Assembly: GCA_020854815.1 (NCBI GenBank)
Contig: JAHKLW010000029.1
Location: 21,821 to 85,820, forward strand
Length of the DNA: 64,000 nucleotides
Origin: Methanofastidiosum sp.
Lineage (GTDB): Archaea; Methanobacteriota_B; Thermococci; Methanofastidiosales; Methanofastidiosaceae
Reading direction: 5' to 3'
The translations under genes and the position numbers were made by a program. Position 1 is the stretch's first letter; every line of letters starts with the position of its first letter. Positions 13,100-43,656 of the stretch are shown one piece after another. The notes beneath the pieces are model-generated. The model was not told where the DNA came from. It ran no database searches and saw only the letters and a list, made by a program, of their open reading frames with translations.

Positions 13100-13913
13100 T
13101 TAATTTGAGTTCATTTTTAAAATGAAATGAAAAAGAAAAGATTGTTTCCAGAGCCATCCTATTATGCCCTTGTTATTTAATTCTTCATCTGCTAATAGCT
13201 TAAGCCTTGACTGTTCCTGTTCTATGTTTTGAACTTGTTCCTGAAGGATAGCTTTTGTTTGAGTGTCAAAATCACTTTCTTCTATGAGTCTGTTTAGTTC
13301 CCTGATTCTGTTTTCATTTATTACAATCTCCTGCACTATGAGTCCCGCTGCTTCGTTGTCCCCGCCTGCAAAGAATTTGACAAATCCGCTTCTGCTTTGT
13401 ATCCTTTCTTCTGCCCTAGTTGTTATCTCAAAGGAATTTTTGATTTCATTTGATACCTTTGATATGTTTGCTTCTGATTTGCCAAACATAGGGGCTGTTG
13501 ATTCGATTGCCTGGACTGCAACTTGGGCCATCTTTTGGTTCTGTGGTAAGTTTGGCATTGTGGAGTTTACTTCTTGATTTATTTGTTGGATAACTGATCT
13601 GAACTGTTGTTCAGTGTTTGGCGCAATTTGATTTTGATTCTGAATATTCCGGGGGTTACTGCGACATTGCCTTCATTCTGAATAATTTGAGTTTGTTGCT
13701 GAACTTGGATATTGGATGTATTTCCTTTATTTGAAATTTGCTCTTGAACATTCAATTGATTAGCATTCTGAGTCGGAGTTACATTATTATTTGAATTTGA
13801 AAGATTTTTAGGGGATGTGTTTGTTTCTTTGTTTGACTCTTGATTATGTGGTGCTGCGGCATATGCTGAAGTGAAAAGAAATAAAATAATTAAAAGAATA
13901 AAGAGTTTTTCAT
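13100..13913 (-). pseudogene. secreted Q/N-rich coiled-coil protein gene interrupted by two homopolymer frameshifts (A5 at 13906-13910, C5/G5 at 13651-13655)
   Basis: The ATG at 13913 gives 'MKNSLFF*'. Adding one A would give 'MKKLFILLIILFLFTSAYAAAPHNQ...', a canonical signal peptide. The frame then runs about 85 codons ('...IIQNEGNVAVTPG'). After a 1-nt shift at the C5 run it continues in the frame of ORF 13100..13558 ('RNIQNQNQIAPNTEQQ...MPNLPQNQ'). Confidence 0.45.
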
Positions 13914-14910: not shown

Positions 14911-15342
14911 TTAGAATATTAAAATTATAAGGGGCATAATACCTAAAAAAAAGTTGAAATAAAGAATATTTATTAAAGAGAATAAAAAAGATTTATTTTT
15001 CTTACCGAAACCGAGTATCTTCATGAATGAAAACATTGGAGTTGGCTTGTCTATTGCAACTTTAATAAGCACAGAAGTATTTTTATTATAAAATTTTACC
15101 GTTCCAGATTTCTCAGCTTTCCAAGTCATGACTAATTTTTGGCCATCCCACTTGTCATCCACATAAGATAGCACCCCATTTGGAGTTTCCAAAGCATCAT
15201 AGCTACCATTACTTGTGACAATGACATCTTCTCCAATAGCATAATATATCTTATTTGGATAAATATATGTTGCATCTGGTAATTCAGTTGCAGTTACAGA
15301 AGCTACTCCAATCATGCTCCCGAATAGTAACAATCCTATCAA
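14911..15342 (-). CDS. small secreted protein carrying the shared C-terminal 'P..MKILGFGKK' motif (followed here by a 25-aa hydrophobic extension)
   Basis: Signal peptide 'MIGLLLFGSMIGVASVTA'. The motif 'PTPMFSFMKILGFGKKNKS' matches the island-wide C-terminal consensus. The extra tail 'FLFSLINILYFNFFLGIMPLIILIF' follows a T5 homopolymer and may be an indel artefact. Confidence 0.55.
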   Translation of the reverse strand: MIGLLLFGSMIGVASVTATELPDATYIYPNKIYYAIGEDVIVTSNGSYDALETPNGVLSYVDDKWDGQKLVMTWKAEKSGTVKFYNKNTSVLIKVAIDKPTPMFSFMKILGFGKKNKSFLFSLINILYFNFFLGIMPLIILIF

Positions 15343-15457
15343 AATTGTGAATATTTTTTTTCATAATTATCACTTTTAATTAACTTGATTTATATCTATG
15401 TGTTTTTAAATATTTGGTATCAATTTAGAAAAGATAGAAAGAAGAAAAAAAATTAAT

Positions 15458-16621
15458 TTATGGAACAACAATCTCAACGACAATCCTGTCAAATGTTCCG
15501 TTCAGTGAAAATGCCGTCATGACAACTGGATATCTACCTGAAGAAACGTTTGGCCCTACTGTGAAAGTTGCATCATAAGACCCTATGTTATGTGCTTTGA
15601 TCTTCTGTAAGCCTGGTTCGATGCCGACAATTATGCCCTCCGGTAATCCGTCAAATCTTACCCTTACATCATTCTGTGTAAAGAACCCTCTGTTTTCAAT
15701 CTGGATCTTCGTCTGTTGAGTTCCGGGCGATATGTTGAAGCTTGATATAGTCTTTCCGTCTTGAATAATTGTATCTCCGCCAACTATCTGGAAGTTCTCT
15801 ATGTCGACGTTTGGATAAAGTATCGCTGCAGGGATAGATTTTTGTCTGCACTCATAGCAACATTGCCTTTCTAAAGTTATCCCAAATTCATTTGGATCAA
15901 AACCCTCATCTGCAGTTATAGTTATGCTTGACGGTATTCCTTTTATAGAATTCATGTATTGTCCGTTTTCTTGGTCGTAGAAGTATATCTCAATATATTT
16001 TCCAAATAATATACCATTAGCTTGAAATGGAACTCCGTTGACATATATTGTTCCTGAACCGGAATAATATACTTTAAGGGAATACTGTTCATGCACAATT
16101 TGGCAATTATAATTGTTTGGGAGTGTGCAATCAAAAGAAATCTTAGGGGTACAATCACCCTCTGCAGGACAATTCCTTACGTCTATGCATCCTACAGGCC
16201 CAGAAAAGATTATTGGTGCAAGGCCATTTGTGCTGCACCTTGGAACGGGAATTGATTGTCCGAGAGTTATCGGTTTAGGTGAAGCTATCATGCATTCTTC
16301 TTGGCAAATATCTTCAGAATTTGATACTATGTGGAGTGAGTTTTCAAGCACACGACATTGAGTGAGGCAGTCTTGGTATCCATTATTCTCATCTCGACAG
16401 TAAGCCTGACAACCCTGTTGTTGTATAAATTGTAATTCTTGGGAGCAATCGGAATAACATTCTTCATCAAAATAGGGTTCATAAATAACATATTCCCATT
16501 TACATCCTTCTAGATGATCGTTATATATCTCTACTATAGACTCTTCTAAGCATCCAGAAAATAATGAAATTAATATAAGGCCAGATAATATCAATACTAT
16601 TTGCTTTTTCATAATGATCAC
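15458..16621 (-). CDS. secreted cysteine-rich protein (no C-terminal KIL motif)
   Basis: 387 aa with N-terminal signal peptide/lipobox-like 'LISLFSGC' and more than 30 Cys. The likely start is 'MKKQIV' at 16612. Confidence 0.55.
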   Translation of the reverse strand: MIIMKKQIVLILSGLILISLFSGCLEESIVEIYNDHLEGCKWEYVIYEPYFDEECYSDCSQELQFIQQQGCQAYCRDENNGYQDCLTQCRVLENSLHIVSNSEDICQEECMIASPKPITLGQSIPVPRCSTNGLAPIIFSGPVGCIDVRNCPAEGDCTPKISFDCTLPNNYNCQIVHEQYSLKVYYSGSGTIYVNGVPFQANGILFGKYIEIYFYDQENGQYMNSIKGIPSSITITADEGFDPNEFGITLERQCCYECRQKSIPAAILYPNVDIENFQIVGGDTIIQDGKTISSFNISPGTQQTKIQIENRGFFTQNDVRVRFDGLPEGIIVGIEPGLQKIKAHNIGSYDATFTVGPNVSSGRYPVVMTAFSLNGTFDRIVVEIVVP

Positions 16622-16727
16622 GGTTATTATTTGTTAATGTTTTTATTCGTTGATATATAAATATTTTGGTAATCATTGTTCGATAAAGATGAAATTTAAA
16701 TTTTAAATAAAAGAAATAAAAAATGAT

Positions 16728-17123
16728 TTATTTTTCCTTGCCAAGTCTTAAGATTTTCATAAACTGTTGCATTGGGTACTCTTTTGGAACTATTGTAACT
16801 GTAGTAGCGTTACCCTTTGTAACACAACACCCGAGCCCACAACAAAAATTTACTTTTCCGGGTTTTAACGCTCTGAAAGTATATTCCCCATTGACATTGC
16901 TTATAAGTTCTAGGTACCCCTCCCCCGATTCACAAAGTATAATTGGTGACTGTATTGTAAAAGTGTCACCTACTTCTACCCTTGTTATCGAAGGTTTGTT
17001 GCATGTAGTTGCCATAACTGATGCAATACTAGATAGAAGGAAAATAATGGAAATTAACAATGCAAATAATTTCTTCATTAAATCACGATTAAAATTAGGA
17101 TTAGTTAATATAAACATTTGCAT
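16728..17123 (-). CDS. small secreted protein with C-terminal 'PMQQFMKILRLGKEK' motif
   Basis: 131 aa with signal peptide 'MKKLFALLISIIFLLSSIASVMA'. The C-terminus matches the shared motif. Confidence 0.6.
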   Translation of the reverse strand: MQMFILTNPNFNRDLMKKLFALLISIIFLLSSIASVMATTCNKPSITRVEVGDTFTIQSPIILCESGEGYLELISNVNGEYTFRALKPGKVNFCCGLGCCVTKGNATTVTIVPKEYPMQQFMKILRLGKEK

Positions 17124-17149
17124 TTAATTTTTACAAAAGAATAAAAAAA

Positions 17150-18136
17150 TTAATTTTTGTTTTTATTTAGGATCTCTAATATCTTCATTATAGGTATTGA
17201 CCCTGTCGGGTCTCTACTAGATGCGTAGTGGAATCCCATATCTACTGTGCCTTTGTCCCATTTCTCATCTGTCCTTGTTGTAAATCCATTGTATAGCCCA
17301 AGGGCAGCTGACTCGTCTGAGCCAGAATCAACAGATGGACTAGCAATTGAAAGGTAATACTCACCAAGTCTTCCTGTAGCAAACTTTGGATCAACTGAAA
17401 TTGAGCCTATGCCAGGCCCCTGCTCATCGTAATCTCCTCCGGTATTGCCCCACGCATTTGAATATGTTATTTCTGATGGGTCGCCATCATCCTCTATGTC
17501 AAATCCTTCATCGCCGTTTCCGACAGCGATGCAGTTTATCACTTTGGTTCCTCCATAGTCATCATAGAATCCATCGCTACTATTATTTGCAGCTGTGCAA
17601 TTTATGTATGTGCAGTGGCTATTATCGTCAAATCCATCTGTATTGTCATATGCTAGACAGTTCTTGAGCGTTCCATAATCGTCTGTAACAAATCCATCAA
17701 AAGCGTTGCTATGGGAGATACAGTTCTCAATATACACATAGTTGCCATCAAGGTAGAATCCGGCACCTGAAGCATTCCTAATAGTTATATTTTTCATTGT
17801 AGTATAGGAGCTAGTGCTAGATATCGCATTGCCGACGCCGGCATTTGTGGCATCAATTATAGTATTGAAAGGACTGTCCCCGATTATTGTAAGATTACTT
17901 GCTGAAAATTCAATTCCGTCTTTAATATAATAAGTCCCTGCATGAACGTAAATTGTTGACCCGGGGGGTGCGCCTTGGATTGTGTCATGAAGGACCTGCC
18001 ATCCATCGCTTTCGTATACATGGTATACGTCTGCTGAAACTGGATTTACCATAATTAAAATAGATATTAATAAAATTCCAGATATTAAAAATGAAGTAAG
18101 TTTTTTCATTATAGTCGCCATTATAAAAAAAATCAT
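17150..18136 (-). CDS. secreted right-handed parallel beta-helix (PbH1/pectate-lyase-fold) protein with C-terminal 'SIPIMKILEILNKNKN' motif
   Basis: Signal peptide (likely start 'MKKLTSFL' at 18109). Has repeated 'N..DGF' beta-helix rungs ('NAFDGFVTDD', 'NTDGFDDN', 'SSDGFYDD', 'GDEGFDIED'). It is a paralogue of 25180..26181. Confidence 0.7.
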   Translation of the reverse strand: MIFFIMATIMKKLTSFLISGILLISILIMVNPVSADVYHVYESDGWQVLHDTIQGAPPGSTIYVHAGTYYIKDGIEFSASNLTIIGDSPFNTIIDATNAGVGNAISSTSSYTTMKNITIRNASGAGFYLDGNYVYIENCISHSNAFDGFVTDDYGTLKNCLAYDNTDGFDDNSHCTYINCTAANNSSDGFYDDYGGTKVINCIAVGNGDEGFDIEDDGDPSEITYSNAWGNTGGDYDEQGPGIGSISVDPKFATGRLGEYYLSIASPSVDSGSDESAALGLYNGFTTRTDEKWDKGTVDMGFHYASSRDPTGSIPIMKILEILNKNKN

Positions 18137-18171
18137 GAGATTATATAACTGTTACGGCTAGTTAGAATAAG

Positions 18172-18197
18172 AAATAATTTAGTTCCTAAAGCTTGTA
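18172..18197. repeat. 26-bp direct repeat 'aaataatttagttcctaaagcttgta' (copy 1 of 2; copy 2 at 19563..19588)
   Basis: Exact 26/26 match with 19563..19588. Copy 2 is the 3' end (codons 'TSFRN*') of the UPF0210 gene. Copy 1 lies downstream of the COG1373 ATPase gene, so the two copies bracket it. Confidence 0.8.
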
Positions 18198-18222
18198 GCT
18201 GATATTATTACCTTTTGATTTT

Positions 18223-19539
18223 TTAGAGGTTTGACATATTACTTTTTTCAATAACCCACCTATAAGCAGGTATAACTCTAATTTTTTTATCTTCTATTTG
18301 AATTTCATCTGTCTGTTCAAAAGTTATGATTAGTCCTTCTCTAATCTTTAAGGCGTCCATAACTTCAATCAATCCATTTATCTCCCGTTCCATATTAGTT
18401 TCATCGAGTGCAAAACTGACCTGTATAGCATCTGTTATTTTGTTGCCCTTTTTGACTAGGAAGTCACATTCGTTCTTGTTTGAGTAGTAATAGATATCTT
18501 TATTTTCCCTCTTTAGCTCGATATACACCAGATTCTCTAAGTTTCTACCTTTGTTTGGCGTAAATGTTAAGCCACATATCTTGTTGAACGCTTGGTCGAC
18601 AAGGTATATCTTCCTTGGAGAGTTAAGCTGCTGTCTCAATGAATGGGAGAATTTTAGCACTTCGAAGAAGATGTAGGAGTTCCCAAGATAGGAAATATAC
18701 TCTTTCACAGTTATGGCATTCCCAAGGTTAAGTGTTTTTTTAAGAGAGTTGTATGTGAACTTACATGTGGCGTTAGTTGCAAGTATATTAACGAGCTCCT
18801 TCAATAGCTTCTCTTTCTTTATAGAATACCTAACTATTATATCCTTATACAGTATGTTCTCATACACTGTTTTTAAGTAATCCGAATCTTGATTTTTTAG
18901 ATACTCTGGAAATCCCCCGGAGTTAAGGTATTCTTCAAAGAGTTTTTGAAGATTAATCCTTTTTTCAGATATGTAAAAATCATCCTTGTTGAAGATTATA
19001 TTTTTGAATGAGAGGAACTCCACAAATGAGAAGGGGTATACCTCAAACACCTTGTATCTCCCTGTAAGCCTTGTACCAAACTCTTTGCTAAGAAGAGACG
19101 CATTTGATCCGGTGATTATTATTTTTTTGCCTTGGTCCTGTAATCTTCTAACAAAAGTTTCAAATTTCTCAACGTTTTGGATCTCGTCGAAGAAGTAGAT
19201 TTTTGAGGGTCCGTATGATTCGATTAGGACTTCGTTTAGAGTTTCGAATTCTTTAGCGTTAAAGTCAAGTAATCTTTCGTCTTCAAAGTTTATATAACAC
19301 CATCCCGATTTATTCTGCATTAATTGTTTTAACAGGGTAGATTTGCCACACCTTCTGACACCCGTTAGGATAATTATCCTTTCATCTTCGAAGAAACCTA
19401 ATATTTTATCTAATATCTCTCTTCTTACTGTTTCTTTCTGGATGTTTAGTTCCTTTTTTTGATTTATCACTACCTGTCTCAATATCTCTTTGGTAGTCAT
19501 ACTCATTAATAATGAGTACTTATATATAAATCTACTCAT
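18223..19539 (-). CDS. AAA+ superfamily ATPase, COG1373/DUF4143-type (archaeal ATPase)
   Basis: Walker A 'GVRRCGKSTLL' and Walker B 'IYFFDEIQ', with an overall COG1373-like architecture and a DUF4143-like C-terminal domain. The probable start is 'MTTKEIL' at 19500. Confidence 0.7.
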   Translation of the reverse strand: MSRFIYKYSLLMSMTTKEILRQVVINQKKELNIQKETVRREILDKILGFFEDERIIILTGVRRCGKSTLLKQLMQNKSGWCYINFEDERLLDFNAKEFETLNEVLIESYGPSKIYFFDEIQNVEKFETFVRRLQDQGKKIIITGSNASLLSKEFGTRLTGRYKVFEVYPFSFVEFLSFKNIIFNKDDFYISEKRINLQKLFEEYLNSGGFPEYLKNQDSDYLKTVYENILYKDIIVRYSIKKEKLLKELVNILATNATCKFTYNSLKKTLNLGNAITVKEYISYLGNSYIFFEVLKFSHSLRQQLNSPRKIYLVDQAFNKICGLTFTPNKGRNLENLVYIELKRENKDIYYYSNKNECDFLVKKGNKITDAIQVSFALDETNMEREINGLIEVMDALKIREGLIITFEQTDEIQIEDKKIRVIPAYRWVIEKSNMSNL

Positions 19540-19551
19540 TGCTAATGAGTA
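19497..19551. promoter_or_regulatory. two palindromic sites 'ACTCATTAATAATGAGT' and 'TACTCATTGCTAATGAGTA' about 32 bp apart at the 5' end of the ATPase gene
   Basis: Perfect 8-bp half-sites ('ACTCATTA'/'TAATGAGT') at 19501-19517 and 19533-19551. They overlap the candidate start codons and look like operators for a dimeric regulator. Confidence 0.35.
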
Positions 19552-19562
19552 TTTTAAATAAA

Positions 19563-19588
19563 AAATAATTTAGTTCCTAAAGCTTGTA
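19563..19588. repeat. 26-bp direct repeat (copy 2 of 2), overlapping the stop region of the UPF0210 gene
   Basis: Identical to 18172..18197. Confidence 0.8.
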
Positions 19589-20931
19589 ACAGATGCCGGA
19601 ATCCTGCCGCCACGTTTTACGAATCTAGAGCAGTCAACCTTCTTTACAGGCATTACTGACCCTTCGCCTAACAGGCCTCCAAAGTGGACATAGTCCCCTT
19701 CCTTCTTTCCTTTGATTGGAACAAGCCTGACACCAACAGTCTTGTTGTTGTATACGCCTATGGCAATCTCATCTGCGATAATCCCTGCAATGATCTCTTC
19801 TGGAGTGTCGCCTGGTATTGGGACCATATCTAGCCCTACAGAGCATACTGATGTCATAGCTTCAAGCTTTTCAATATTGATGTAGCCCTCTTTTGCAACT
19901 TCAATCATGCCTCGGTCTTCTGATACAGGTATGAACGCGCCGCTGTATCCTCCGATTCTAGAGCTTGCCATGATGCCTCCTTTCTTTACAGCGTCAGTTA
20001 GAAGTGCTAATGCGCAAGTGGATCCAGGACCGCCGCAGTGCTCTATGCCCATGTCCTCAATGATCTTTGCAACGCTATCCCCTACCGCAGGAGTTGGTGC
20101 TAGAGACAGATCGATTGAGCCAAAGTCAACCTTCATTCTTTTAGCGACCTCTTCCCCAATCAATTCCCCGGCTCTGACAATTTTGAAAGAGACTCGCTTT
20201 ATGGTGTCGCATAGCTCCATGAAGTTCCCATCGGTCTTTTCTACTGCAGCCCTTACTACCCCTGGCCCGCTGATACCTACATTAATTGATGCGTCAGAGT
20301 TTCCAATGCCGTGATAAGCACCTGGCATGAAAGGTATATCTTCTGGTGCGTTTGCTAGAACTACTAGCCTTGCGCATCCAGTATCAGATACCTCAGAGGT
20401 CTTTTTGATTATCCGGCCCATCCTAAGGATCTCGTCCATGTTTATTCCATCACGAGTTGATGCGACAACTACTGAAGAGCAGAGCCTCTCTGTAGCGTCC
20501 ATTGCCTCTGGTATTGATTCAATAAGGATGTTGTCCCCTAGTGATGCTGCCCTATGAACAAGAGCTGTATAGCCCCCAATAAAATTGATACCTAGGTCTT
20601 CAGCTGCCTCATCAAGAGTTGTGGCTATCTTTACTGCCGCCTTTTTTGAAGGCATTCCAAGAGCATTTATTATTAAAGAAATTGGAGTCACAGCTATCCT
20701 TTTGTTCACTATCGGGATTCCAAAATCTTCCTGAACGCTGTTTACGATCTCGACGAAATCCCCGGCTTTGTCCTCTAGCTTTTCAGCTATCCGCTCGCAT
20801 GTGTGGCCTACATCATTTTTAGCACAATCCAATAAATTGATGCCGAGCGTAACAGTCCTTATGTCAAGCTGCTCAACCTTTACCATCTTTATGGTCTCAA
20901 GAATCTCATCAGATGTTACCATAGGCCTCAA
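19570..20931 (-). CDS. UPF0210 family protein
   Basis: 453 aa. Shows the conserved partnership with a small ACT-domain (UPF0237) gene immediately upstream; the two overlap by 4 nt. Confidence 0.6.
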   Translation of the reverse strand: MRPMVTSDEILETIKMVKVEQLDIRTVTLGINLLDCAKNDVGHTCERIAEKLEDKAGDFVEIVNSVQEDFGIPIVNKRIAVTPISLIINALGMPSKKAAVKIATTLDEAAEDLGINFIGGYTALVHRAASLGDNILIESIPEAMDATERLCSSVVVASTRDGINMDEILRMGRIIKKTSEVSDTGCARLVVLANAPEDIPFMPGAYHGIGNSDASINVGISGPGVVRAAVEKTDGNFMELCDTIKRVSFKIVRAGELIGEEVAKRMKVDFGSIDLSLAPTPAVGDSVAKIIEDMGIEHCGGPGSTCALALLTDAVKKGGIMASSRIGGYSGAFIPVSEDRGMIEVAKEGYINIEKLEAMTSVCSVGLDMVPIPGDTPEEIIAGIIADEIAIGVYNNKTVGVRLVPIKGKKEGDYVHFGGLLGEGSVMPVKKVDCSRFVKRGGRIPASVTSFRN

Positions 20932-21215
20932 ACCCTGTGCATCCTGTCAAATATCTCTTTCCTTTGAATTAGAAGATTAATGTTAAGTTTGGCCCCTTCG
21001 TCCTCTAGGTCCTTCTTTATCTTCTTAAAGTCATAGCCTGATGTGGATATATCGGCTATGGCAATCATTGAGAATACGCCGTCAAGAACGGTCTGGCTGA
21101 GCTCTAGTATATTGACATTTAAGTCAGCTAGCACCCTTGTAACACCTGCCACGATACCGGGCCTATCGGCTGATAATACAGTAATAACAATCTTTTCTCC
21201 AATTTTGTCTGCCAT
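20928..21215 (-). CDS. ACT domain protein (UPF0237 family)
   Basis: 95 aa, 'IVITVLSADRPGIVAGVTRVLADLNVNILELSQT' ACT fold. Precedes the UPF0210 gene. Confidence 0.65.
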   Translation of the reverse strand: MADKIGEKIVITVLSADRPGIVAGVTRVLADLNVNILELSQTVLDGVFSMIAIADISTSGYDFKKIKKDLEDEGAKLNINLLIQRKEIFDRMHRV

Positions 21216-21321
21216 GTCTAAAAAGATGTTTATTGTCTTAAAAAGTTAGTGGAGAAAAGAAGATATTTATTTTATTATACTATACCATAAAATATATAAA
21301 GAAGTAAGATAATCTTACTTT

Positions 21322-21609
21322 ATGGCTACAACTACCGTAAACTCCAAGGAAGAGTTCACACGTGTAAGCTCTAAAGGGCAGATTGTCATCCCAAAAGATA
21401 TCAGGGATAATCTAGATATCAAAGAGGGCGATCTTCTAGCCGCAGTTTCTGAAGAGAACTTCATCATCTTGAAAAAGATTGACCCCAAGATTACTGAAGA
21501 AGAGAAGGTACTCCTAAAAAGAATAAAGGAATCCTGGGACAGTATAGATAGGGGCGATTACACAGAGATGGAAGGAAGCGAACTCCTAAAGGAAATGAAG
21601 AAATGGTAA
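21322..21609 (+). CDS. AbrB/SpoVT-family antitoxin
   Basis: Has the 'SSKGQIVIPKDIRDNLDIKEGDLL' swapped-hairpin motif. Overlaps the downstream RelE-like gene (ATGGTAA). Confidence 0.6.
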   Translation: MATTTVNSKEEFTRVSSKGQIVIPKDIRDNLDIKEGDLLAAVSEENFIILKKIDPKITEEEKVLLKRIKESWDSIDRGDYTEMEGSELLKEMKKW

Positions 21610-21818
21610 GGGTAGTATATTCTAAGGAATTTGAGCAGGATGTCAAAAAGATCCGCGACAAGGCTTTAAAGGAACGACTTATTAAACAAGTTAAGAAAAT
21701 ACTTAAAAATCCCGATATTGAAAAGCCCCTGCGATACAATCTAAAAGGCGAGAGGTCTGTCTACGTCCCTCCATATAGATTAGTATATGCGCTTATTGAT
21801 GACAAGATTTTTTTCTGA
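21603..21818 (+). CDS. relE: RelE/ParE-family toxin
   Basis: 71 aa, '...NLKGERSVYVPPYRLVYALIDDKIFF', a typical RelE/StbE C-terminus. Translationally coupled to the antitoxin. Confidence 0.6.
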   Translation: MVRVVYSKEFEQDVKKIRDKALKERLIKQVKKILKNPDIEKPLRYNLKGERSVYVPPYRLVYALIDDKIFF

Positions 21819-21884
21819 GGTTTAGACACCGGGAAGATGTCTACGATTGAAAGTTGTAATAAGAGAAAATAAATAAAGAAAGAG

Positions 21885-22982
21885 TTACTTTTCTTTTAGA
21901 TTCAATCCAAGTATCTTAAGTATCTGTGCTATTGGAAGTGACTTGCTTCTTGGTGGTGTGCCCTGGTACTTAATTGTAAAGTAGTCATATTGTGAGATGT
22001 TCCATACGTATCCTGTGACGATAATGTTGTTTTGTGAGTCTATAGCGATATCATAGGAGTCGTCATAATCATTTGAGAAGTCATATTTTCTTTCCCAGAC
22101 CTTTTTGCCGTTTGGATCATATTTGACGGTCAAGTACTGGTAGTATCTATAAGAGTCGTATTCCCCTCCAGTTATGAAAATATTGTTGTATGAATCAACT
22201 GCGACTTTATAGCTCCATCTGCCGCCTGTGTTATCAATTATATCCCAAAGCTCTGCACCGCTAGAGCTGTACTTCACTGTGACTGATGAATAACTGTTTA
22301 CATGATCATCTGCATAACCCGATATAATCACATTGTTAAGGGAGTCTATCGCAACACCGGGAGAGTAGTCTGAGTCACCACTGTCAAAGATCTTTTCCCA
22401 GATTATATTGCCACTTGAATCATACTTTACAGTATAGAAGTCACTTGCAGAAACTCCTGTAACGACAATATTGCTATGCGAGTCAACTGCAACGCCATAT
22501 ACTGTTCCAAGATAATCCACCTGGCGGAGAAGATTGCCATTTGAATCATACTTTATTATACCAGAGTTCCCAGCCACTATGACATTGTTTTGTGAGTCTG
22601 TTGTAACTGCATAAGCGGTACCTGAATATGGCTCATCCCAGATATAGGTTCCATTTGGACCATATTTTACAGTCCCACTATCTCCTGTTACTATGATATT
22701 GTTTTGGGAATCTGTTGTAACGTCGCGGGGCTTTCCAGATGGACCTATTACGGCTGTTGGCCACGCTAGATTGCCACTTGAATCGTACTTTATTATCAAA
22801 TAGTTAGCGCCAGAGTATCCAGAGACTATGACATTGTTCTGCGAATCAGTTGCGACACCGTAAGAGTAATAATTACTGGAAGGATAGATTTTAGACCAGA
22901 TAATATCGCCATCTCCAGCAGATGCCAATCCTAGAGAGGCAACAAACATTATCGCTACTAAAATAGAGATTAGTTTTCTCAT
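21885..22982 (-). CDS. secreted SBBP-type beta-propeller repeat protein with C-terminal 'KSLPIAQILKILGLNLKEK' motif
   Basis: Signal peptide 'MRKLISILVAIMFVASLGLASA'. Has about 7 repeats of 'DSQNNVIV(S/T)GYS...(I/V)KYDSSGN'. C-terminal shared motif. Confidence 0.65.
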   Translation of the reverse strand: MRKLISILVAIMFVASLGLASAGDGDIIWSKIYPSSNYYSYGVATDSQNNVIVSGYSGANYLIIKYDSSGNLAWPTAVIGPSGKPRDVTTDSQNNIIVTGDSGTVKYGPNGTYIWDEPYSGTAYAVTTDSQNNVIVAGNSGIIKYDSNGNLLRQVDYLGTVYGVAVDSHSNIVVTGVSASDFYTVKYDSSGNIIWEKIFDSGDSDYSPGVAIDSLNNVIISGYADDHVNSYSSVTVKYSSSGAELWDIIDNTGGRWSYKVAVDSYNNIFITGGEYDSYRYYQYLTVKYDPNGKKVWERKYDFSNDYDDSYDIAIDSQNNIIVTGYVWNISQYDYFTIKYQGTPPRSKSLPIAQILKILGLNLKEK

Positions 22983-23122
22983 ATTGTTTCACCTAGTGCT
23001 ACCATAAAATAGTCAAGCAATGATATATAAAATTATTGGTTATTATTGGTAATCAATGCTAAAAATATAGTTTTTATCTGTAAGGTTGAAAGTTAATAAT
23101 AAGAAAAGAAAAAAATATAGTA

Positions 23123-23902
23123 TTAGTTTTCTTGATTCTCTTTGAGAATCTTTAGTATCTGTGCTATGGGCAAAGACTTTGGATCTGGGTCTGCGCCTGT
23201 AGTAAACCAAAGTGCAAGTCCATTTCTTATTGGCCCATCGTATGAAACGCCTGTGACGTCATCAAGATCAAGCCCGATAACTGGGGGATGTTCATGATCG
23301 TCAATTATATTAGTTATGTTCTTGTACTGCATCTTGATATTACCGTTCTTGTAGAGTATTACCTGTACTGTTTGGGCCCCCTCGTTTGTACCCTCACCGT
23401 AATACATACCCGCTGCATCAAATTCAATAACAAGATAATCTCCAAAGTTCTGGTAGTATGCATTGCCCCTCTCTTTAAAACTCATATCATAAAATAGGAA
23501 GGCAATGAGTGGATTTTCACCCCAATAGTTTGTTCCGATTGAGTAACTTTCAGTAGGTATTTTATAACCATAATAGTTGTAACTTGCATAATTTCCTACT
23601 CCTGAAGAGAAATCTATGTGGCCGTTTGTTGAGAGGTAAAGCTGATTGTAAGTCTCCCCATAGAAGGGAAAATCAAAACCGATGTCAATCTTTACATAAT
23701 CATCGTCTAGTGGATTATCGCCGGCATTCGCCCACACAACTTCTGTTCCCGTATCCTTTATCTCAATCCAATTGTAGTTTGCATCATAGACTCTGTATGG
23801 ATTTGCTCCAAAGCTCGTATACTGCGCCCCAAGAATTGATGCTACCCCAAAAAAACTCCCTACAAAGAGTAAGGATATAACAATTGCATATAGTTTTTTC
23901 AT
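23123..23902 (-). CDS. secreted protein with C-terminal 'KSLPIAQILKILKENQEN' motif
   Basis: Signal peptide 'MKKLYAIVISLLFVGSFFGVASILGA'. Aromatic-rich beta-type sequence with the C-terminal shared motif. Confidence 0.6.
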   Translation of the reverse strand: MKKLYAIVISLLFVGSFFGVASILGAQYTSFGANPYRVYDANYNWIEIKDTGTEVVWANAGDNPLDDDYVKIDIGFDFPFYGETYNQLYLSTNGHIDFSSGVGNYASYNYYGYKIPTESYSIGTNYWGENPLIAFLFYDMSFKERGNAYYQNFGDYLVIEFDAAGMYYGEGTNEGAQTVQVILYKNGNIKMQYKNITNIIDDHEHPPVIGLDLDDVTGVSYDGPIRNGLALWFTTGADPDPKSLPIAQILKILKENQEN

Positions 23903-24005
23903 AATAATAACTCCATTAGATATAAAAAAATATTAATTATTAATATATAAATTTAACTGCAAGAACTAATTTATTATAAAAATAGAAAAAATTATAAAAA
24001 AGATT

Positions 24006-24701
24006 TTATATTGCAAGATCTCCTGGTGCGAGTTCCTCAACTTTTTTCCCTTTTGAGAGAAGGTCTTGCATTATCTCCAATCTCTTTAGAATAGTGCTTC
24101 TGTGGCACATGATGAATGTACATTTGTCGTCCCCTTTTGCTTTGCATGTTATTTCCCTTGCCTCAAGCGGTATGCCAAAGGATTCTTCACACCAGCCTGC
24201 AGAGTACCCGGCATTTATGTGGCAGATATTACGATTTGACTTCTCTCCTCTTTTCAAGAAGGGTTCAGCTTCAAAAGATCCAGGATGGTGATACACTAAC
24301 AGATAATTCTCGTCAGGTGAAGGTGCAGACGCCGGCAGAATGTCCACAAACGCCCAGCCGCTATATGAGAAGTATACTGGTCCCGCAGACAGCTTTTCTA
24401 AAGGATCTTTTATCCCAAATTTCTTGTGAAACTCTTTGGCTTCTTGGAGACCTACGGCCTTGCCAAATTTATACATGATCTGGTCTGCTCCCTTGTCCCC
24501 GTAAACTTCCTCTAAAGTGTGCCTAAAAGAAACTGCAAGCGATGTTGCACGAACCCACATATATCTATCGCCATCAATATCAATTCTCCCCTTTTCAGGC
24601 TGATGAACAACCTTTTTGAAGAATTCGTTAATTGTGTTTTCTGATTTAAGAAATATGGGTACCATCTCTGGGGGAACTTTTGCTGCCTTAAACTCAACCA
24701 T
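24006..24701 (-). CDS. V4R (4-vinyl reductase) domain protein
   Basis: C-terminal 'ICHINAGYSAGWCEESFG' matches the V4R 'C-h-x3-G-x3-G-x2-E' signature. Cytoplasmic, with no signal peptide. Confidence 0.5.
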   Translation of the reverse strand: MVEFKAAKVPPEMVPIFLKSENTINEFFKKVVHQPEKGRIDIDGDRYMWVRATSLAVSFRHTLEEVYGDKGADQIMYKFGKAVGLQEAKEFHKKFGIKDPLEKLSAGPVYFSYSGWAFVDILPASAPSPDENYLLVYHHPGSFEAEPFLKRGEKSNRNICHINAGYSAGWCEESFGIPLEAREITCKAKGDDKCTFIMCHRSTILKRLEIMQDLLSKGKKVEELAPGDLAI

Positions 24702-25073
24702 TTATATCACTCCTGAAATTTTGTCGGCCGTCCTTTTCATATCTAGAAAAACTAGGCCCAGTTTTGCATCCTTTTTTGCAAGTGCTGTGAGAACTGCATC
24801 TTCCCCAGCGCCCATTAAGAGAATGTATCCGTCCTGACCTTTAACAAAGACCTGCTCAAGAGACCCCTTCATGAGCTCTTTTGATGTTCTTTCTCCTAAT
24901 GAGAGCATTGCTGCTGACATTGCAGCTACTCTGTCCTCTTCGACGTCTTGTGGTAATTCACTTGCAATAATTAAACCATCAGTCGATACCACAGCAGATG
25001 CTTGAACATCTGCGGATGTTGATTTAAATTCTTTTAGAAGTTCTTTAAGTACTTCGGTTCTTGATTTGGCCAT
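24702..25073 (-). CDS. Roadblock/LC7 (MglB-like) domain protein
   Basis: 123 aa, 'SAVVSTDGLIIASELPQDVEEDRVAAMSAAMLSLGERTSKEL' Roadblock fold pattern. Abuts the V4R gene with no gap. Confidence 0.55.
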   Translation of the reverse strand: MAKSRTEVLKELLKEFKSTSADVQASAVVSTDGLIIASELPQDVEEDRVAAMSAAMLSLGERTSKELMKGSLEQVFVKGQDGYILLMGAGEDAVLTALAKKDAKLGLVFLDMKRTADKISGVI

Positions 25074-25179
25074 AAAAACTCCTCAATTGGTAATCTATAT
25101 TTACAGATGACAGATTTTTACGGCCTTATAAGGCTAGTGGAGAAAAAAATAATTAAAATAGAGAAAAATTAATAAAAAT

Positions 25180-26181
25180 TTATTCTTGATTTTCTTTTAG
25201 GATCTTAAGAATCTTATCCACTGGTAGGCTTGATGGTGGGCCTCTACTAGATGCGTAGTGGAATCCCATGTCTACTGTGCCTTTGTCCCAGATTCCATCT
25301 GTTCTTGTTGTAAATCCTTGGTACAGCCCAAGTGCCGCTGATGAGGTAGAGCCTTTATCTACGCATGGGCTATTTGGTGAAAGGTAGAAAGTGTCTATTC
25401 CATCGACAAACTTTGGGTCAACTGAAATAGAGCCAGTTCCGGCAGGTGTTTCGTCATAATTGCCCCAAGGATTATTCCATGCGTTACAATATATTACTTC
25501 TGATGGGTCATATTCATCCTCTATGTCAAATCCATTGTCACCATTTCCAACTGCTATGCAGTTTATCACTTTAGTTCCGCCATCGTCACTATAGAATCCA
25601 TCGTACACATTCCCAACAGAGGTGCAGTTGATGAATGTACTGTGGCTATTATCTCCAATCCCATCAGATCCGTTATTATATGAAAGGCAATTTTTAACTG
25701 TGGCATAATCGGTAACAAGAATACCGTTTGCTCCATCTGTAAAACCATTGCTGTGAGTGATACAATTCTCAATAGTTGCATACTCTCCCCCCACCCAATT
25801 TCCACCAACATTTTCTTGATCCATAAGAATTCCATATCCCGGCGCATTTCTTACAGTGATATTTTTTATAGTTATATATTTTTTCAAGGAGCAGAAGCCG
25901 TCCCCACCAGAAGATGTTGCATCAATTATGGTATTAAAAGGGCTATCGCCTATTATTGAAATATTATCTGCATTTACGGTAATTGTGCCATTTGTGGAAT
26001 AAATTCCTGCGTGAACGTAAATCGTGTCCCCTGCAGATGCAGCTTCAATTATTACCTCAATGTCGTCCCCTTGGTAGACATGATACGTTGCCGCAGAGAC
26101 CGGGCTTAATATCATAAAAATACTTGCAAAAAGTATTGACATTATTATTATAGATTTTATTTTATTCATAATAAACACCAT
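25180..26181 (-). CDS. secreted right-handed parallel beta-helix protein (paralogue of 17150..18136) with C-terminal 'LPVDKILKILKENQE' motif
   Basis: Signal peptide (start likely 'MNKIKSII' at 26169), 'N..DGF' rungs, and a C-terminal about 60 aa nearly identical to its paralogue. Confidence 0.7.
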   Translation of the reverse strand: MVFIMNKIKSIIIMSILFASIFMILSPVSAATYHVYQGDDIEVIIEAASAGDTIYVHAGIYSTNGTITVNADNISIIGDSPFNTIIDATSSGGDGFCSLKKYITIKNITVRNAPGYGILMDQENVGGNWVGGEYATIENCITHSNGFTDGANGILVTDYATVKNCLSYNNGSDGIGDNSHSTFINCTSVGNVYDGFYSDDGGTKVINCIAVGNGDNGFDIEDEYDPSEVIYCNAWNNPWGNYDETPAGTGSISVDPKFVDGIDTFYLSPNSPCVDKGSTSSAALGLYQGFTTRTDGIWDKGTVDMGFHYASSRGPPSSLPVDKILKILKENQE

Positions 26182-26278
26182 TATATTGTTAAAAATGGAA
26201 AGAAATTAATATATTTAAAGCTAACTATAAAAAAATCTATTAAAAAATAATGGTAAAATTATTATAAATTAAAAATAT

Positions 26279-27541
26279 CTATTTATTATTTTCGTTCTTT
26301 TCTAGAATCTTCATTATCCTGTCCATTGGAAGAGATTTGGGAACAAAGGGTATTGCTCTATGAGTATTGAAATTGTTCTGTCCGAACTTTGGCCAGTTTG
26401 AGTTTGCATATGCCTTCATTGATTGTTGATAAGACGCATATGTCCAACTTGAACTGCTCTGAATAGCGTAGAGTTTATAGTCGTCTTCGCCTCCAACATA
26501 GATTGTGCCGTCAGGAGCTATTGCAGGAGATGACCTACCACCACCGACATCATACCTCCACTTGTAGTCAGTACGATCTCCACTACCTGTCGGGCTTATC
26601 GCGTAAAGATAATCATCCTGGCTCACAAAATATATTGTGCCGTCTGCACCGATTGCAGCGGATGATGGAACACTGCTACCTGTTTCAAATCTCCACTTTA
26701 GAGAACCGTTTGGATTTATTGCATAGAGGTATTTATCGGAGCTCCCAATATATACTGTGCCATCTGCACCGATTGCTGGTGATGATCGATTAATGCCTCC
26801 ACCGGTCTCATATCTCCACTTTAGAGAACCATTTGGATTTATTGCATAAAGATAATCATCATAACTTCCTATGTATATAGTGCCGTCTGCTGCAACAGCA
26901 GGGGATGAGCGAGCATAATACGTATTGATGTCATAAGTCCATTTCAATGACCCGCTTGGTGTTATTGCGTAAAGGTTGCCGTCTTGGCTTCCAACATAGA
27001 TTGTGCCGTCTGCACCTATTGCTGGTGATGACTGAGCATAGCTAGTGCTACCTATGTCATAATTCCATTTAAATGATCCGCCTGCAGTCAGCGCATAAAG
27101 GTAGCCGTCATGGCTTATAAAATATATTGTGCCATCTGCACCGATTGCGGGAGATGAGCAAACATTTGATCCTGTTTCATATGACCACTTTAGAGATCCG
27201 TCTGGATTTATTGCATAAAGATAATCATCCTGGCTCCCAATGTATATTGTTCCATCAGGAGCTATTGATGGTGAGCCTGTGATATAACTCCCAGTTTCAT
27301 ATGTCCATTTTGGGGCCCCTCCACTTGGGGAGAATGCATAGAGGGAAAAATCATACCCCCCAACATATATTGTGCCATCTGCACCGATTGCTGGGGATGA
27401 ATAAACATAATTTCCTATATAGTAATCCCATTTAAGGTCCCCATCCGCGGCAAAAACTGCTCCAAAAGACGTTAAAAATATAGTAACTAATAAAACAGCT
27501 GTTATTTTTTTCTTCATGAAAATCACCATTATTGTTATCAA
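26279..27541 (-). CDS. secreted PQQ-like beta-propeller repeat protein with C-terminal 'PKSLPMDRIMKILEKNENNK' motif
   Basis: About 8 repeats of 'SSPAIGADGTIY(V/I)GS.D..LYAI.P.GSLKW'. Signal peptide (start likely 'MKKKITAVLL' at 27517). Confidence 0.7.
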   Translation of the reverse strand: MITIMVIFMKKKITAVLLVTIFLTSFGAVFAADGDLKWDYYIGNYVYSSPAIGADGTIYVGGYDFSLYAFSPSGGAPKWTYETGSYITGSPSIAPDGTIYIGSQDDYLYAINPDGSLKWSYETGSNVCSSPAIGADGTIYFISHDGYLYALTAGGSFKWNYDIGSTSYAQSSPAIGADGTIYVGSQDGNLYAITPSGSLKWTYDINTYYARSSPAVAADGTIYIGSYDDYLYAINPNGSLKWRYETGGGINRSSPAIGADGTVYIGSSDKYLYAINPNGSLKWRFETGSSVPSSAAIGADGTIYFVSQDDYLYAISPTGSGDRTDYKWRYDVGGGRSSPAIAPDGTIYVGGEDDYKLYAIQSSSSWTYASYQQSMKAYANSNWPKFGQNNFNTHRAIPFVPKSLPMDRIMKILEKNENNK

Positions 27542-33200: not shown

Positions 33201-33919
33201 GCACTTTTGAGATAGAAAAAGAATTTCTCACTGATTTCATAGAATCACCAAAAGAATTGAAATCGATACTAGTAAAAGAGCCCTTTAAAACAAAATTGTT
33301 TAGAGTTCCAAAAGAAATATCCTTATCAGATTTAAAATCAAGTAAAGCATATCGATACATTTCTTTTGGGGAAAAAAATAAGTATAAGACAGATTTACCA
33401 AAACAAGCATATTATGGTTCTAAAATAATAATGGCTTGTTATCAAGGGGCAAGTCATATAATAAACTATAATCCTAATAGAATAATTTCCCATAGATTTT
33501 TTAGGATAATACCAAGAACTAAAGAAATAGATGAAGAAACATTAATTTTATTATTAAACTCTACTTTTTCATCTTTATCGCTTGAAATATTCAGAAATCC
33601 AAGTTTAGGCGGCGGAGTTTTAGCACATGGAACTTATACCATTAAAGAGTTTATAATACCAAAAATTGAAAAAATTGAGATTAACAAAAAAAAATTTATT
33701 TATAGAGAAATCAAGCCAATTTTTGAAGAAATAGGAATAGATCCAACAAAAACTATTAGGGATCAATTCCCCAAACCCATTCCTGAAAGAGAAGAATTAG
33801 ACGATATTATATTTGATGAATTAGGATTAACAAAAGAAGAAAGAAATGAAGTATATTGGTCTCTATGTGAACTAGTCAAACAAAGATTAGATAAAGCAAA
33901 AAGTTTGAAATGTGAGTAA
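30263..33919 (+). CDS. N6-adenine DNA methyltransferase, Eco57I/type IIG/PglX/DrmMI-like (1218 aa)
   Basis: Motif I 'VVDPACGSGAFLVG', 'LYGVDVMPWALHAAELRLWL', 'LPNLDMNLRRGDSL' and motif IV 'IVIGNPPYVRYQ'. A coiled-coil insertion of about 150 aa sits between the GDSL and NPPY motifs. A long C-terminal region could be a target-recognition domain (TRD). Overlaps the next gene by 8 nt. Confidence 0.8.
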   Translation: MPKEVNQITREIVKNHLEKISNFKDVYDLFRLLNYPDEIIYPSPTRRKKDSFNFKKEDQDRIKEVYSIISIGEGLSKGDNLQVFFVECNSISTRFTREVTKKLAESYRSLLVIFTDNYDNIVFILPENVKERDVFKLKLTRLHAIKSDLYYTDIDIVSRLLYEQENSWRFIFKKWKDAFSVERVQDSFFEDYKKVFFKVRDYLREQKVPKKESHEFTLQLLNRIMFIYFISKKGWLKEKKFISYLWKEYKKSNEKDTFYSKWLKQIFFKAFNGRAAEISEISESMRQLLLEYAPHLNGGLFRESKLDKHESLKNLVLPDSLFLELIQGFFERYNFTIKEDIPLDQDVAVDPQMIGYVYESLANVADEIYDRNDLGIFYTPSIEVEFMCKRSLVEYIWNNMPDILPKEKIYHLLFDLPDLDEDLIDYFNSNNIWHRLEEVLDNLSVVDPACGSGAFLVGMLNILSEVYSYIHIQSSRNIPDFERKYRIIQRNLYGVDVMPWALHAAELRLWLQLIVESDFKTEELKKGPLLPNLDMNLRRGDSLVQEIGDMTFNLRQNILNPILKKRLDKLKLEKQKYFESSRTGRFRRSDEIRNEEISIFQEIIAQRIEAVENKIKENNDKLLKSKKSEQTFLVERPKSKIQLEIEEEKKEGILQKQITDLKQEIHILNELNKKLLNPEEKPFVWDIDFAEIFGDKGGFDIVIGNPPYVRYQKISPPNIPKSEVSLEAKKEYKEKLINSVNNQFPLIQSLDRKSDYYIYFYFHGLSLLNKKGTFCFITSNSWLDVEYGRDLQEFLVKYVPIYSIYDNLVKKSFAHADVNTIIAFFGSPKIKIENLTEWLFEEETNKGTWPYINNIAKFVMFKKPFEECLMIDNLLEIEKCQNTKVTNDMRVVCISQKELFQQGLTNKNIYYGTMWGGRYLRSPDIFLDIQKNSREKLTRLSDIINVETYLNTLGSDKFFFVSVEQTVNNLCKIKSRIDGSTFEIEKEFLTDFIESPKELKSILVKEPFKTKLFRVPKEISLSDLKSSKAYRYISFGEKNKYKTDLPKQAYYGSKIIMACYQGASHIINYNPNRIISHRFFRIIPRTKEIDEETLILLLNSTFSSLSLEIFRNPSLGGGVLAHGTYTIKEFIIPKIEKIEINKKKFIYREIKPIFEEIGIDPTKTIRDQFPKPIPEREELDDIIFDELGLTKEERNEVYWSLCELVKQRLDKAKSLKCE

Positions 33920-37085: not shown

Positions 37086-37142
37086 GTCGTATAAAATATT
37101 TAATAATTCATAATGCCTATATCTCAATCAATTATACTCAAA

Positions 37143-43050: not shown

Positions 43051-43656
43051 TTGATAAATAGTATAATGGTGAAAACTATGAGAAAAATAATATCTTTATT
43101 GGTTAGCTTGTTATTTGTTGGAAGCACCTTTGGGGTGGCATCAATAACTGCCAGCGCCGTTGATCCAGACATTGAATGCTCTTCATGTGATGGTTCAGCT
43201 CCATGCCTATGTGAAGGGTCCTCTTATGGGATTAGTATGGGGACAGTTAAGGTTGGGGAAACATTTACCATTACTCATAACAAACGAGAGTCATATTGGC
43301 AATGGATAAAAGTCGATGATTCTACACGTACGGATATTTGGTATAATGAAATCGTTCCGAATGGACTTCCAGTTCGTTTGGGCCTTGTAGAACTAATAGA
43401 CTTTAGAGCATATTATACTGATGGGTCATCATATAATTACAAAGAAGCGCCCAAAAAAGGAATCGGCGTTCTTGATCACACAGTATACACATTTAGGACA
43501 GTTCGCCCCGGTACAGTGTATTTCACATTCAAATGCAATCCCCGAGAAGAGCCATGTAGTTGCTGTGATAGGGTAGTCCCAGTCGAAATAACTCCAAAAT
43601 CACATCCAATCGACTGGATACTGAGGAAGTTCGGGCTTGGCAAATTCAAAGAATAA
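43051..43656 (+). CDS. secreted Cys-containing protein with C-terminal 'PKSHPIDWILRKFGLGKFKE' motif
   Basis: Signal peptide from 'MRKIISLLVSLLFVGSTFGVASITASA' (start likely 43078). The C-terminus matches the shared motif of the 15-27 kb island. Confidence 0.55.
   Translation: MINSIMVKTMRKIISLLVSLLFVGSTFGVASITASAVDPDIECSSCDGSAPCLCEGSSYGISMGTVKVGETFTITHNKRESYWQWIKVDDSTRTDIWYNEIVPNGLPVRLGLVELIDFRAYYTDGSSYNYKEAPKKGIGVLDHTVYTFRTVRPGTVYFTFKCNPREEPCSCCDRVVPVEITPKSHPIDWILRKFGLGKFKE

Follow-up and report, generated by a model that had tools for sequence, protein, structure and literature searches.

A conserved C-terminal tail with a predicted amphipathic helix on secreted proteins of Methanofastidiosales, a candidate surface-retention tag

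INTRODUCTION

The C-terminal signals read by sortases, exosortases, and archaeosortases are tripartite, with a transmembrane helix standing between a motif and a basic cluster, and are cleaved by a dedicated enzyme (PMC6098224). A signature followed by a hydrophobic element on many signal-peptide paralogues was the genomic hallmark behind the discovery of PEP-CTERM and PGF-CTERM (PMC6098224). A 2018 review of archaeal surface biogenesis deals with transmembrane anchors, ArtA-processed tripartite signals, and lipobox lipidation and never uses the word "amphipathic" (PMC6098224). Here, we analyze a C-terminal tail of 17 to 19 residues borne by the products of eight genes in a stretch of 64,000 nucleotides from the archaeon Methanofastidiosum sp. 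(GenBank assembly GCA_020854815.1, contig JAHKLW010000029.1, positions 21,821 to 85,820 of the forward strand). The whole stretch is called the window, and its own numbering is used throughout.

Several described systems rely on short terminal helices. Once the signal peptide of Escherichia coli PBP5/DacA or PBP6/DacC has been cleaved off, an amphipathic helix at the C-terminus binds the exported protein non-covalently to the outer side of the cytoplasmic membrane; to our knowledge, no PBP-type C-terminal amphipathic anchor has been described in archaea. The membrane-targeting sequences of MinD and FtsA are C-terminal amphipathic helices of 8 to 15 residues, rich in F, L, K, and G, which act at the cytoplasmic face on proteins lacking signal peptides. 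Encapsulin cargo-loading and microcompartment peptides consist of a flexible linker and a short terminal helix, are common to unrelated cargo, and are bound by a shell protein. Methanofastidiosales themselves are uncultured methyl-reducing methanogens common in digesters and sediments. The comparisons reported below strongly support their tail as a real C-terminal tag, apparently an undescribed one.

RESULTS

Eight window proteins end in the same short tail

The eight open reading frames (ORFs) of Table 1 had been singled out in a preliminary description of the window, and an ORF listing together with a regular-expression scan found each quoted tail at its place. The match among the tails is far beyond chance: a hidden Markov model (HMM) of 18 columns, built from the eight, scored them at 25.8 to 33.2 bits, against 6 bits for the next-best window ORF. 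The HMM match stops 0 to 2 residues short of the C-terminus in seven of the eight ORFs, and 7/8 also pass the heuristic test by which we called signal peptides; ORF 14911-15342, discussed below, departs on both counts.

The eight proteins had been described as unrelated, which was an overstatement. After removal of tails and signal peptides, BLAST and hhalign identified the two beta-helix proteins (17150 and 25180) as paralogues, hhalign related the 16728 and 43051 proteins at profile level (98.9% probability), and the 14911 protein showed a marginal relation at best, leaving 5 to 6 independent families. When the window and related genomes were clustered together (BLAST, 1e-3), nine tagged families were obtained, the two additional ones in the related genomes being a family of ~300 amino acids (aa) and one of 188- and 307-aa ORFs.

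Anatomy of the tail

The consensus of the window tails reads x-K-S-L-P-[MI]-x-x-[IF]-[LM]-K-I-L-x-x-[NG]-x-x-x, in which the proline and a short amphipathic helix form a core of 15 residues. Residues were counted position by position in 59 non-redundant tails, numbered from Pro = 0. Upstream of the invariant proline (59/59) stand P at -4 (30/59), K at -3 (32/59), S at -2 (38/59), and L at -1 (43/59). The proline is followed by M (29/59) or I (28/59) at +1, variable residues at +2 and +3, I (47/59) or F (12/59) at +4, L (40/59) or M (17/59) at +5, K at +6 (45/59), I at +7 (54/59), and L at +8 (49/59). Positions +9 and +10 are again variable (polar or G/L/F), position +11 is N (46/59) or G (11/59), one or the other in 57/59 tails, and 2 to 5 residues from K, E, N, Q, and D then lead to the C-terminus. 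The spacing from Pro to the C-terminus is 13 to 16 residues in 56 of the 59.

A tagged protein is laid out as a signal peptide, an extracellular domain of any fold, a Pro-rich linker of 5 to 12 residues, the helix, and a polar end. The hydrophobic face of the 11-residue helix is made up of +1 M/I, +4 I/F, +5 L/M, +7 I, and +8 L, and proline at the start of a helix and asparagine or glycine at its end are classic capping residues. Over the 59 tails, the mean hydrophobic moment is 0.52 and the mean hydrophobicity 0.14, close to the values for the MinD and PBP5 membrane-targeting helices. In the AlphaFold model of the 25180-26181 protein, residues 321 to 331 (VDKILKILKEN) form a helix which follows a linker with a pLDDT of about 63 (residues 311 to 320) and is detached from the confident beta-helix domain (pLDDT >90; mean 91.9). 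Signal peptide (by the heuristic) and C-terminal amphipathic helix (predicted helix 321-331, moment 0.52) are combined here as in PBP5. Residue counts, hydrophobic moment, and predicted helix agree with the initial reading of the motif as a proline plus a short amphipathic helix. There is no transmembrane segment, as the 13 to 16 residues from Pro to the C-terminus contain a hydrophobic run that is broken by Lys +6 and by polar residues at +2/+3.

Two subtypes could be distinguished. The subtype "...ILKILKENQE" is found chiefly on larger proteins, and the more basic and aromatic one, "...FMKILGFGKK" or "...DWILRKFGLGKFKE", is found on small Cys-rich proteins. The extreme C-terminus is K-rich in some subtypes (GFGKKK, KKNKNK) and mixed or acidic in others (KENQEN, KGNQEE). 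The same subtype can occur in different families; for example, ...KILGLxLKE is shared by SBBP and PQQ proteins, and ...KILEKNKNK(E) by PQQ and small proteins. A rare variant carries a two-Cys extension, N-R-C-K-N-H-P-D-x-E-G-C. In L014 12798-13316 (-) and L006 13328-14377 (+), a degenerate helix (PMDQITNILEKN / PMNKFLSILRNN) precedes a conserved R-C-K-N-H-P-D-[AL]-E-G-C-[EN]-V-N with its two Cys.

The tail is restricted to secreted proteins of one lineage

Related genomes were surveyed over 264 kb, comprising the window and 12 loci, with 246 greedy ORF calls, and an ORF was counted as tagged when its tail HMM score was at least 15 bits. GTDB species genomes scanned with the pattern ILKILK[EG]N[QK] gave seven loci, of which two were from Candidatus Methanofastidiosum methylothiophilum, four from three metagenome-assembled genomes (MAGs) named "uncultured Thermococci archaeon," and one from a record labelled delta proteobacterium; a metagenome scan gave 4 further loci only. 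The loci around P0004, P0013, and P0027 proved short or uninformative.

In the 264 kb, 39 of the 246 ORFs are tagged. The tail match lies 0 to 3 residues from the C-terminus in 36 of these, the other three being two read-through ORFs and one two-Cys variant. A heuristic signal peptide was called for 36/39 tagged and 31/207 untagged ORFs (Fisher p = 3e-21), in line with the restriction to signal-peptide proteins that had been expected from the window; the three tagged ORFs without a call comprise the 14911 ORF with its TTG start, one ORF masked by Ns, and one truncated at its 5' end. The 64-kb window has 8 tagged genes, and two contigs from a single M. methylothiophilum MAG have 10. A lipobox-like Cys was present in 1/36 tagged and 8/31 untagged signal-peptide proteins (p = 0.009). 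The neighboring FG-GAP/TPR secreted protein L016 8258-9961 (+) has a classical end of ...TLPFSPT, a transmembrane helix, and RRRKKI, with no NCBIfam CTERM match, showing that the lineage also uses transmembrane-type C-terminal anchors. The tag looks like one of several alternative anchors in the lineage.

Absence of the motif from homologues, which the preliminary description had named as a ground for giving it up, was not encountered within the lineage. The tail is kept in 55/55 close beta-helix homologues (E < 1e-35; 90%-identity clusters), all with Methanofastidiosum or Methanofastidiosa as source name, and in the orthologues P0048, P0061, P0062, P0065, and P0066 of 17150-18136. For every other family, orthologues found in related MAGs keep it. 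This applies to 21885-22982 (L004, L016), to 23123-23902 (L004, L005, L012, P0035), and to the relatives of 26279-27541 (P0011, P0016, L004, L009), and the relative P0032 of 43051-43656 has the C-terminus ...PMDWILKKFGLGKFKE. Distant bacterial beta-helix homologues stop directly after the ...DMGYHY domain end or bear unrelated ends, which marks the tail as an addition, specific to this lineage, to a domain found widely. In three bacterial homologues (P0100, P0101, and P0103), DMGYHY is directly followed by (V/I)YLPLVL[RK](N/EF)-stop, for instance VYLPLVLRN, which no Pfam or NCBIfam model matches; this end may be a separate C-terminal tag of another lineage. The idea of a dockerin at the same position in distant beta-helix homologues was dropped, since Pfam found none in the candidates.

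An exhaustive HMMER search of 1.84 billion cluster representatives with the tail profile (E <= 1e-3) returned 32 proteins. The match stands at the very C-terminus in 24 of them, which have signal peptides in the style of this lineage; the other 8 are large and repetitive and were rejected as false positives. An alignment of the tails against a word-indexed set of 5.8 billion proteins gave 5 short fragments only. In the record labelled "uncultured delta proteobacterium" (L007; contig CAWDRB010000027.1, 685 kb), six genes are tagged and encode signal peptides of the Methanofastidiosales type. The genes of this stretch are clearly of the archaeal kind seen elsewhere in the lineage and share synteny with L006, from an "uncultured Thermococci archaeon"; the record is probably mislabelled or mis-binned. 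The region syntenic to the window (MetRS ... TGT) in another Methanofastidiosum genome carries a different subset of tagged genes, and the tagged-gene island is a variable region of surface-protein genes. As judged from these sequences, the tag is confined to a single archaeal order, Methanofastidiosales, and is strictly C-terminal, restricted to signal-peptide proteins, and common to about 9 unrelated families.

Selection acts on the peptide

Recent duplication or gene conversion had been recognized from the start as a possible trivial cause of the likeness. Over 15 codons, however, the tails of the window copies are only 36 to 76% identical in nucleotides (pairwise), and identity at the three codon positions (P0..L8) is 0.62, 0.80, and 0.41. 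The adjacent genes 21885 and 23123 encode an identical KSLPIAQILKIL despite 6 synonymous codon differences. Low DNA identity together with diverged third codon positions indicates selection on the peptide and not recent gene conversion. The longest DNA repeat across the window tails is 51 nt at 65 to 75% identity, and the 3' flanks of tagged genes are AT-rich, with similarity that is not uniform; identity range, synonymous divergence, and unevenly similar 3' flanks together rule out the tails as a DNA repeat. A 97-bp block reported as shared by several of these genes could not be upheld for the tails, none of which is involved in such a block.

Tails from the same genome and from different genomes were then compared as a probe for gene conversion or receptor co-evolution. 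No within-genome homogenization across families was detected among 43 tails in 12 genome/contig groups (permutation p about 0.6), cross-family identity in same versus different genomes being 0.49 versus 0.49 for the helix and 0.24 versus 0.24 for the polar end. Genome-specific concerted evolution was rejected because these identities are equal. Each family has its own stable tail variant. The tails appear to be under old purifying selection at the peptide level.

No known signal model matches the tail

The view that the motif is not an archaeosortase-type CTERM signal held up. In hmmscan against NCBIfam release 20, whose models include PGF-, PEF-, VPXXXP-, PEP-, GlyGly-, and MYXO-CTERM and others, neither the full proteins (E <= 1) nor isolated tails of 29 to 62 aa (E <= 10) matched a CTERM family, and the tails matched no NCBIfam or Pfam model at all (E <= 10). 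A PDB sequence search with the tail profile gave nothing meaningful, and full-text searching of the literature turned up nothing relevant, whether for the peptide strings or for Methanofastidiosa together with signal peptide or S-layer. Rfam had no matches over the whole window. Pfam detected no dockerin or cohesin in the tagged proteins, and neither did Pfam or Foldseek in the neighboring Ig-like family described below. The search for a companion gene, proposed in the preliminary description, gave no candidate sortase-like or other processing enzyme in the flanks within the 264 kb, and neighbors came up as scaffold candidates by adjacency only.

Tagged genes of the window

Table 1. Genes of the window whose products carry the C-terminal tail
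Product	Gene	Strand	Tail and its position	Domain or fold evidence	Tail HMM
Small secreted protein	14911..15342	(-)	KPTPMFSFMKILGFGKK at 14995-15048		29.8 bits
Small Cys-rich secreted protein	16728..17123	(-)	KEYPMQQFMKILRLGKEK at 16731-16784		33.2 bits, ends 1 residue from C-terminus
Secreted right-handed beta-helix protein	17150..18136	(-)	GSIPIMKILEILNKNKN at 17153-17203	Pfam Beta_helix 1e-9	25.8 bits, ends at C-terminus
Secreted SBBP-type beta-propeller	21885..22982	(-)	KSLPIAQILKILGLNLKEK at 21888-21944	Pfam SBBP 2.8e-8	28.1 bits
259-aa secreted protein, no Pfam family	23123..23902	(-)	KSLPIAQILKILKENQEN at 23126-23179		32.1 bits
Secreted beta-helix, polysaccharide-lyase-like fold	25180..26181	(-)	SSLPVDKILKILKENQE at 25183-25233	AlphaFold, Foldseek
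Secreted PQQ/BamB-like beta-propeller	26279..27541	(-)	KSLPMDRIMKILEKNENNK at 26282-26338	Pfam PF13570 9e-57, PQQ_2 2.5e-31	31.1 bits
201-aa Cys-rich secreted protein, outside main island	43051..43656	(+)	KSHPIDWILRKFGLGKFKE at 43597-43653		31.4 bits

The folds first assigned from the translations agree with Pfam for 17150, 21885, and 26279 (Table 1). For 25180-26181, the Pfam match is Pectinesterase, at sub-threshold level only, and the beta-helix is assigned from a precomputed Pel9A-like_beta_helix match and the AlphaFold model, which in Foldseek resembles polysaccharide lyases, epimerases, and esterases (PL6, Pel9A, AlgE4). This protein is 100% identical to the NCBI hypothetical protein KO464_03635 of Candidatus Methanofastidiosum sp. 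No Pfam family matched the four smaller tagged proteins of the window. The true start of 16728..17123 is likely at an internal MKKLFALL.

Both general statements made about the eight proteins, a motif near the C-terminus and an N-terminal signal peptide, fail only for ORF 14911-15342. As assembled, this ORF runs 28 residues beyond the HMM match into an AT-rich 3' region, and the sequence 3' of its motif is similar to that flanking the 16728 gene on the 3' side. Its DNA reads GGT AAG AAA AAT AAA TCT TTT; one additional A gives AAG AAA AAA TAA, that is, GFGKKK-stop, and orthologues end in GFGKKK (L018 15418-15792), GFGQKD (P0028), and GFGKKD (L014 8892-9269). The one-base difference in the A-run and the orthologue ends point either to an assembly error in the homopolymer or to a frameshift of very recent date. 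At the other end, the ORF was called from a TTG start and lacks the basic n-region, which is complete in the orthologues P0028 and L018. A second ORF, 13100-13558 (-), is a 5'-truncated, 3'-extended version of a secreted coiled-coil protein of 232 to 259 aa (L005 8208-8906, L018 17459-18238). Its orthologues end in ...NKGILGWIWK-stop, a second kind of short hydrophobic/aromatic C-terminal tail, and the window copy continues for 14 residues beyond GWLWK, much as 14911-15342 does. The two read-throughs suggest homopolymer errors in the assembly.

Neighboring genes and elements

A family of proteins with an Ig-like domain (window 15458-16621 [-], L005 5614-6645, L006 4517-5836, and L014 7606-8808) repeatedly adjoins tagged genes. 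Its members have a lipobox or signal peptide, variable Cys-rich N-terminal parts, and a highly conserved C-terminal Ig-like domain of ~130 aa whose end is always ...NVPSGTYxVTMxAYSPNGxFDxIxxxxVVP-stop. The family comprises 110 clusters (90% identity), all from Methanofastidiosales, and belongs to no Pfam family. Its AlphaFold model (pLDDT 88.7) retrieved only generic Ig/Fn3-like sandwiches in Foldseek, and a role as cohesin-like receptor is unsupported beyond adjacency.

Tagged genes are also adjoined by the gene for a secreted protein of 972 to 985 aa with a borderline Pfam S_layer_C match (PF05124) in L014 13405-16323 (-) and L012 430-3387 (+). This protein, possibly the lineage's S-layer protein, has a Pro plus amphipathic helix end of its own, ...NEPI[RK]QL[TS]YLLD[LM]I[FL]-stop.

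An intergenic repeat of 65 to 113 nt (72 to 88% identity; core TTATTAAAGGATCC...TTCCCAACTTCTATTAAAAGA; no Rfam match) is present in three copies at 42336-42461, 42938-43002, and 44587-44712, one of them just upstream of the tagged gene 43051-43656. This repeat (42336-44712) may be the "shared block" of the preliminary description. A MazE-like antitoxin / ParE-like toxin pair (21322-21818 [+]) lies amid the tagged genes and is conserved in position in L001, L004, and L018, and further toxin-antitoxin genes (PIN, HicB-like) are scattered over the window and related loci. Beside MetRS, a low-GC (28 to 32%) island at 30263-40634 encodes an Eco57I/MmeI-type methyltransferase (1218 aa), a PLD + SNF2/ResIII helicase (1057 aa), a HATPase_c_3 protein, and an AAA_15 ATPase. 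Its probable role is restriction or defense, and the syntenic site in L018 holds a different set (N6_N4_Mtase, ResIII, GmrSD).

DISCUSSION

The sequence evidence supports the original proposal of a candidate new sorting or anchoring signal, and how the tail might act has to be weighed. We tentatively favor, with confidence a little short of even, a lineage-specific tag for non-covalent surface retention that would work as an interfacial membrane anchor, as in PBP5. The combination of linker, capped amphipathic helix, and polar end points to non-covalent retention, as do the mutual exclusion between the tail and other anchors and its confinement to exported proteins. After export and cleavage of the signal peptide, the protein would otherwise be free, and the tethered helix would keep it on the cell surface. 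Most likely, the helix would lie interfacially in the outer leaflet of the membrane, as in PBP5 and PBP6; alternatively, the helix could dock in a groove of a surface protein. Both the retention and the contact by which it works are what we infer from these features. We place the membrane slightly ahead of a docking partner because the basic/aromatic subtype closely resembles membrane-targeting helices and because similar tails occur on neighbors, other secreted proteins of the same genomes having short hydrophobic/aromatic ends (KGILGWIWK; EPIRQLTYLLDLIF in the S-layer-like protein). Several observations nevertheless speak against a membrane anchor. The helix has only ~11 residues and is moderately amphipathic (hydrophobic moment z = 1.35 versus shuffles), and the net charge of the "KENQE" subtype, counted by hand, is near zero, which is weak for binding to anionic lipids. 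A generic lipid-binding helix would need neither an invariant Pro, nor conserved I at +7 and N at +11, nor a constant distance to the end, and such identity-level conservation with a fixed length to the C-terminus pulls toward a protein receptor; in the 264 kb, no receptor, enzyme, or co-distributed gene was identified.

This pull is best expressed by a docking peptide, akin to a minimal dockerin, whose helix and fixed-length polar end would bind a specific envelope receptor and so display many proteins on one scaffold. Sequence identity beyond the hydrophobic pattern is indeed conserved across unrelated families, and two candidate receptors lie at hand: the S-layer-like protein, whose gene adjoins tagged genes in L012 and L014, and the Ig-like lipoprotein family, known from the same lineage only and found beside tagged genes in 4 loci in different arrangements. 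Such adjacency may just reflect the surface-protein island, however, the Ig-like family has no cohesin-like match, and the tails show no genome-specific co-variation; we regard docking as rather unlikely. Very doubtful in our view is a cleaved sorting signal, sortase-like without a transmembrane anchor, for which a protease or transpeptidase would recognize K-S-L-P, remove the helix, and covalently attach or release the protein. Many paralogous proteins with signal peptides do carry [PK]-K-S-L-P immediately ahead of a hydrophobic element, and the helix could transiently hold the substrate at the membrane. Yet the tripartite architecture and a stretch of transmembrane length are missing, the tail end mixes K with E/N/Q, neither a CTERM model nor an enzyme candidate in the 264 kb of flanks was found, and the helix and its cap are more strongly conserved than the upstream K-S-L. 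More doubtful still is the absence of any targeting role, in which case the tail would be a structural or oligomerization helix, or else a module that 3'-end recombination distributed among surface-protein genes and that descent has preserved. The recurrence of tail subtypes in different families suggests past exchange of modules, but no fewer than 9 unrelated folds bear the tail, it is predicted to stand apart from the domain, its synonymous divergence with amino acid conservation amounts to purifying selection, its strictly terminal position and restriction to secreted proteins argue for a function, and homogenization within genomes was not seen.

It is possible, although we would give the idea only limited confidence, that the tail is the recognition element of a new archaeal surface-display system, either as a minimal 15-residue "dockerin" or as the signal of a sorting enzyme working without a transmembrane anchor. 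If the docking or new-enzyme reading were true, it would add a fourth route of protein attachment in archaea to the transmembrane, lipobox, and archaeosortase routes. The tag also provides a simple sequence marker for the Methanofastidiosales surface proteome, including polysaccharide-lyase-like beta-helices, propellers, and small Cys-rich proteins, and, if it works in other hosts, it might become a very small surface-display tag for archaea.

The tag lacks the defining features of transmembrane, N-terminal lipobox, and archaeosortase anchoring, the only three modes established for exported archaeal proteins, and yet shows the genomic behavior that revealed those systems. With PGF-CTERM, PEP-CTERM, and LPXTG signals it has in common that a short, conserved, lineage-specific C-terminal tag stands on many unrelated Sec-exported proteins of one genome; it differs in its Lys-containing amphipathic stretch of 8 to 9 residues with a mixed polar end, which matches no CTERM model. 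Dockerins likewise are one C-terminal module on many different secreted proteins that would dock to a common scaffold, but a dockerin is a duplicated Ca-binding domain of 60 to 70 residues (PF00404), far longer than this tail. Encapsulin and microcompartment peptides resemble it as a linker and short terminal helix on unrelated proteins, whereas their cargo is cytoplasmic and has no signal peptide and the tagged proteins bear Sec-type ones. The MinD and FtsA targeting sequences are alike in composition to the "FMKILGFGKK" and "DWILRKFGLGKFKE" subtypes; they act on the cytoplasmic face, and the tagged proteins are exported. E. coli PBP5/DacA and PBP6/DacC share with the tagged proteins a signal peptide and a C-terminal amphipathic helix of similar hydrophobic moment, but their anchors are longer (about 16 to 20 residues) and family-specific and do not form a portable tag common to unrelated folds. 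Among all these systems, the tag of Methanofastidiosales appears set apart by an amphipathic helix in place of the transmembrane segment and by its restriction to a single order.

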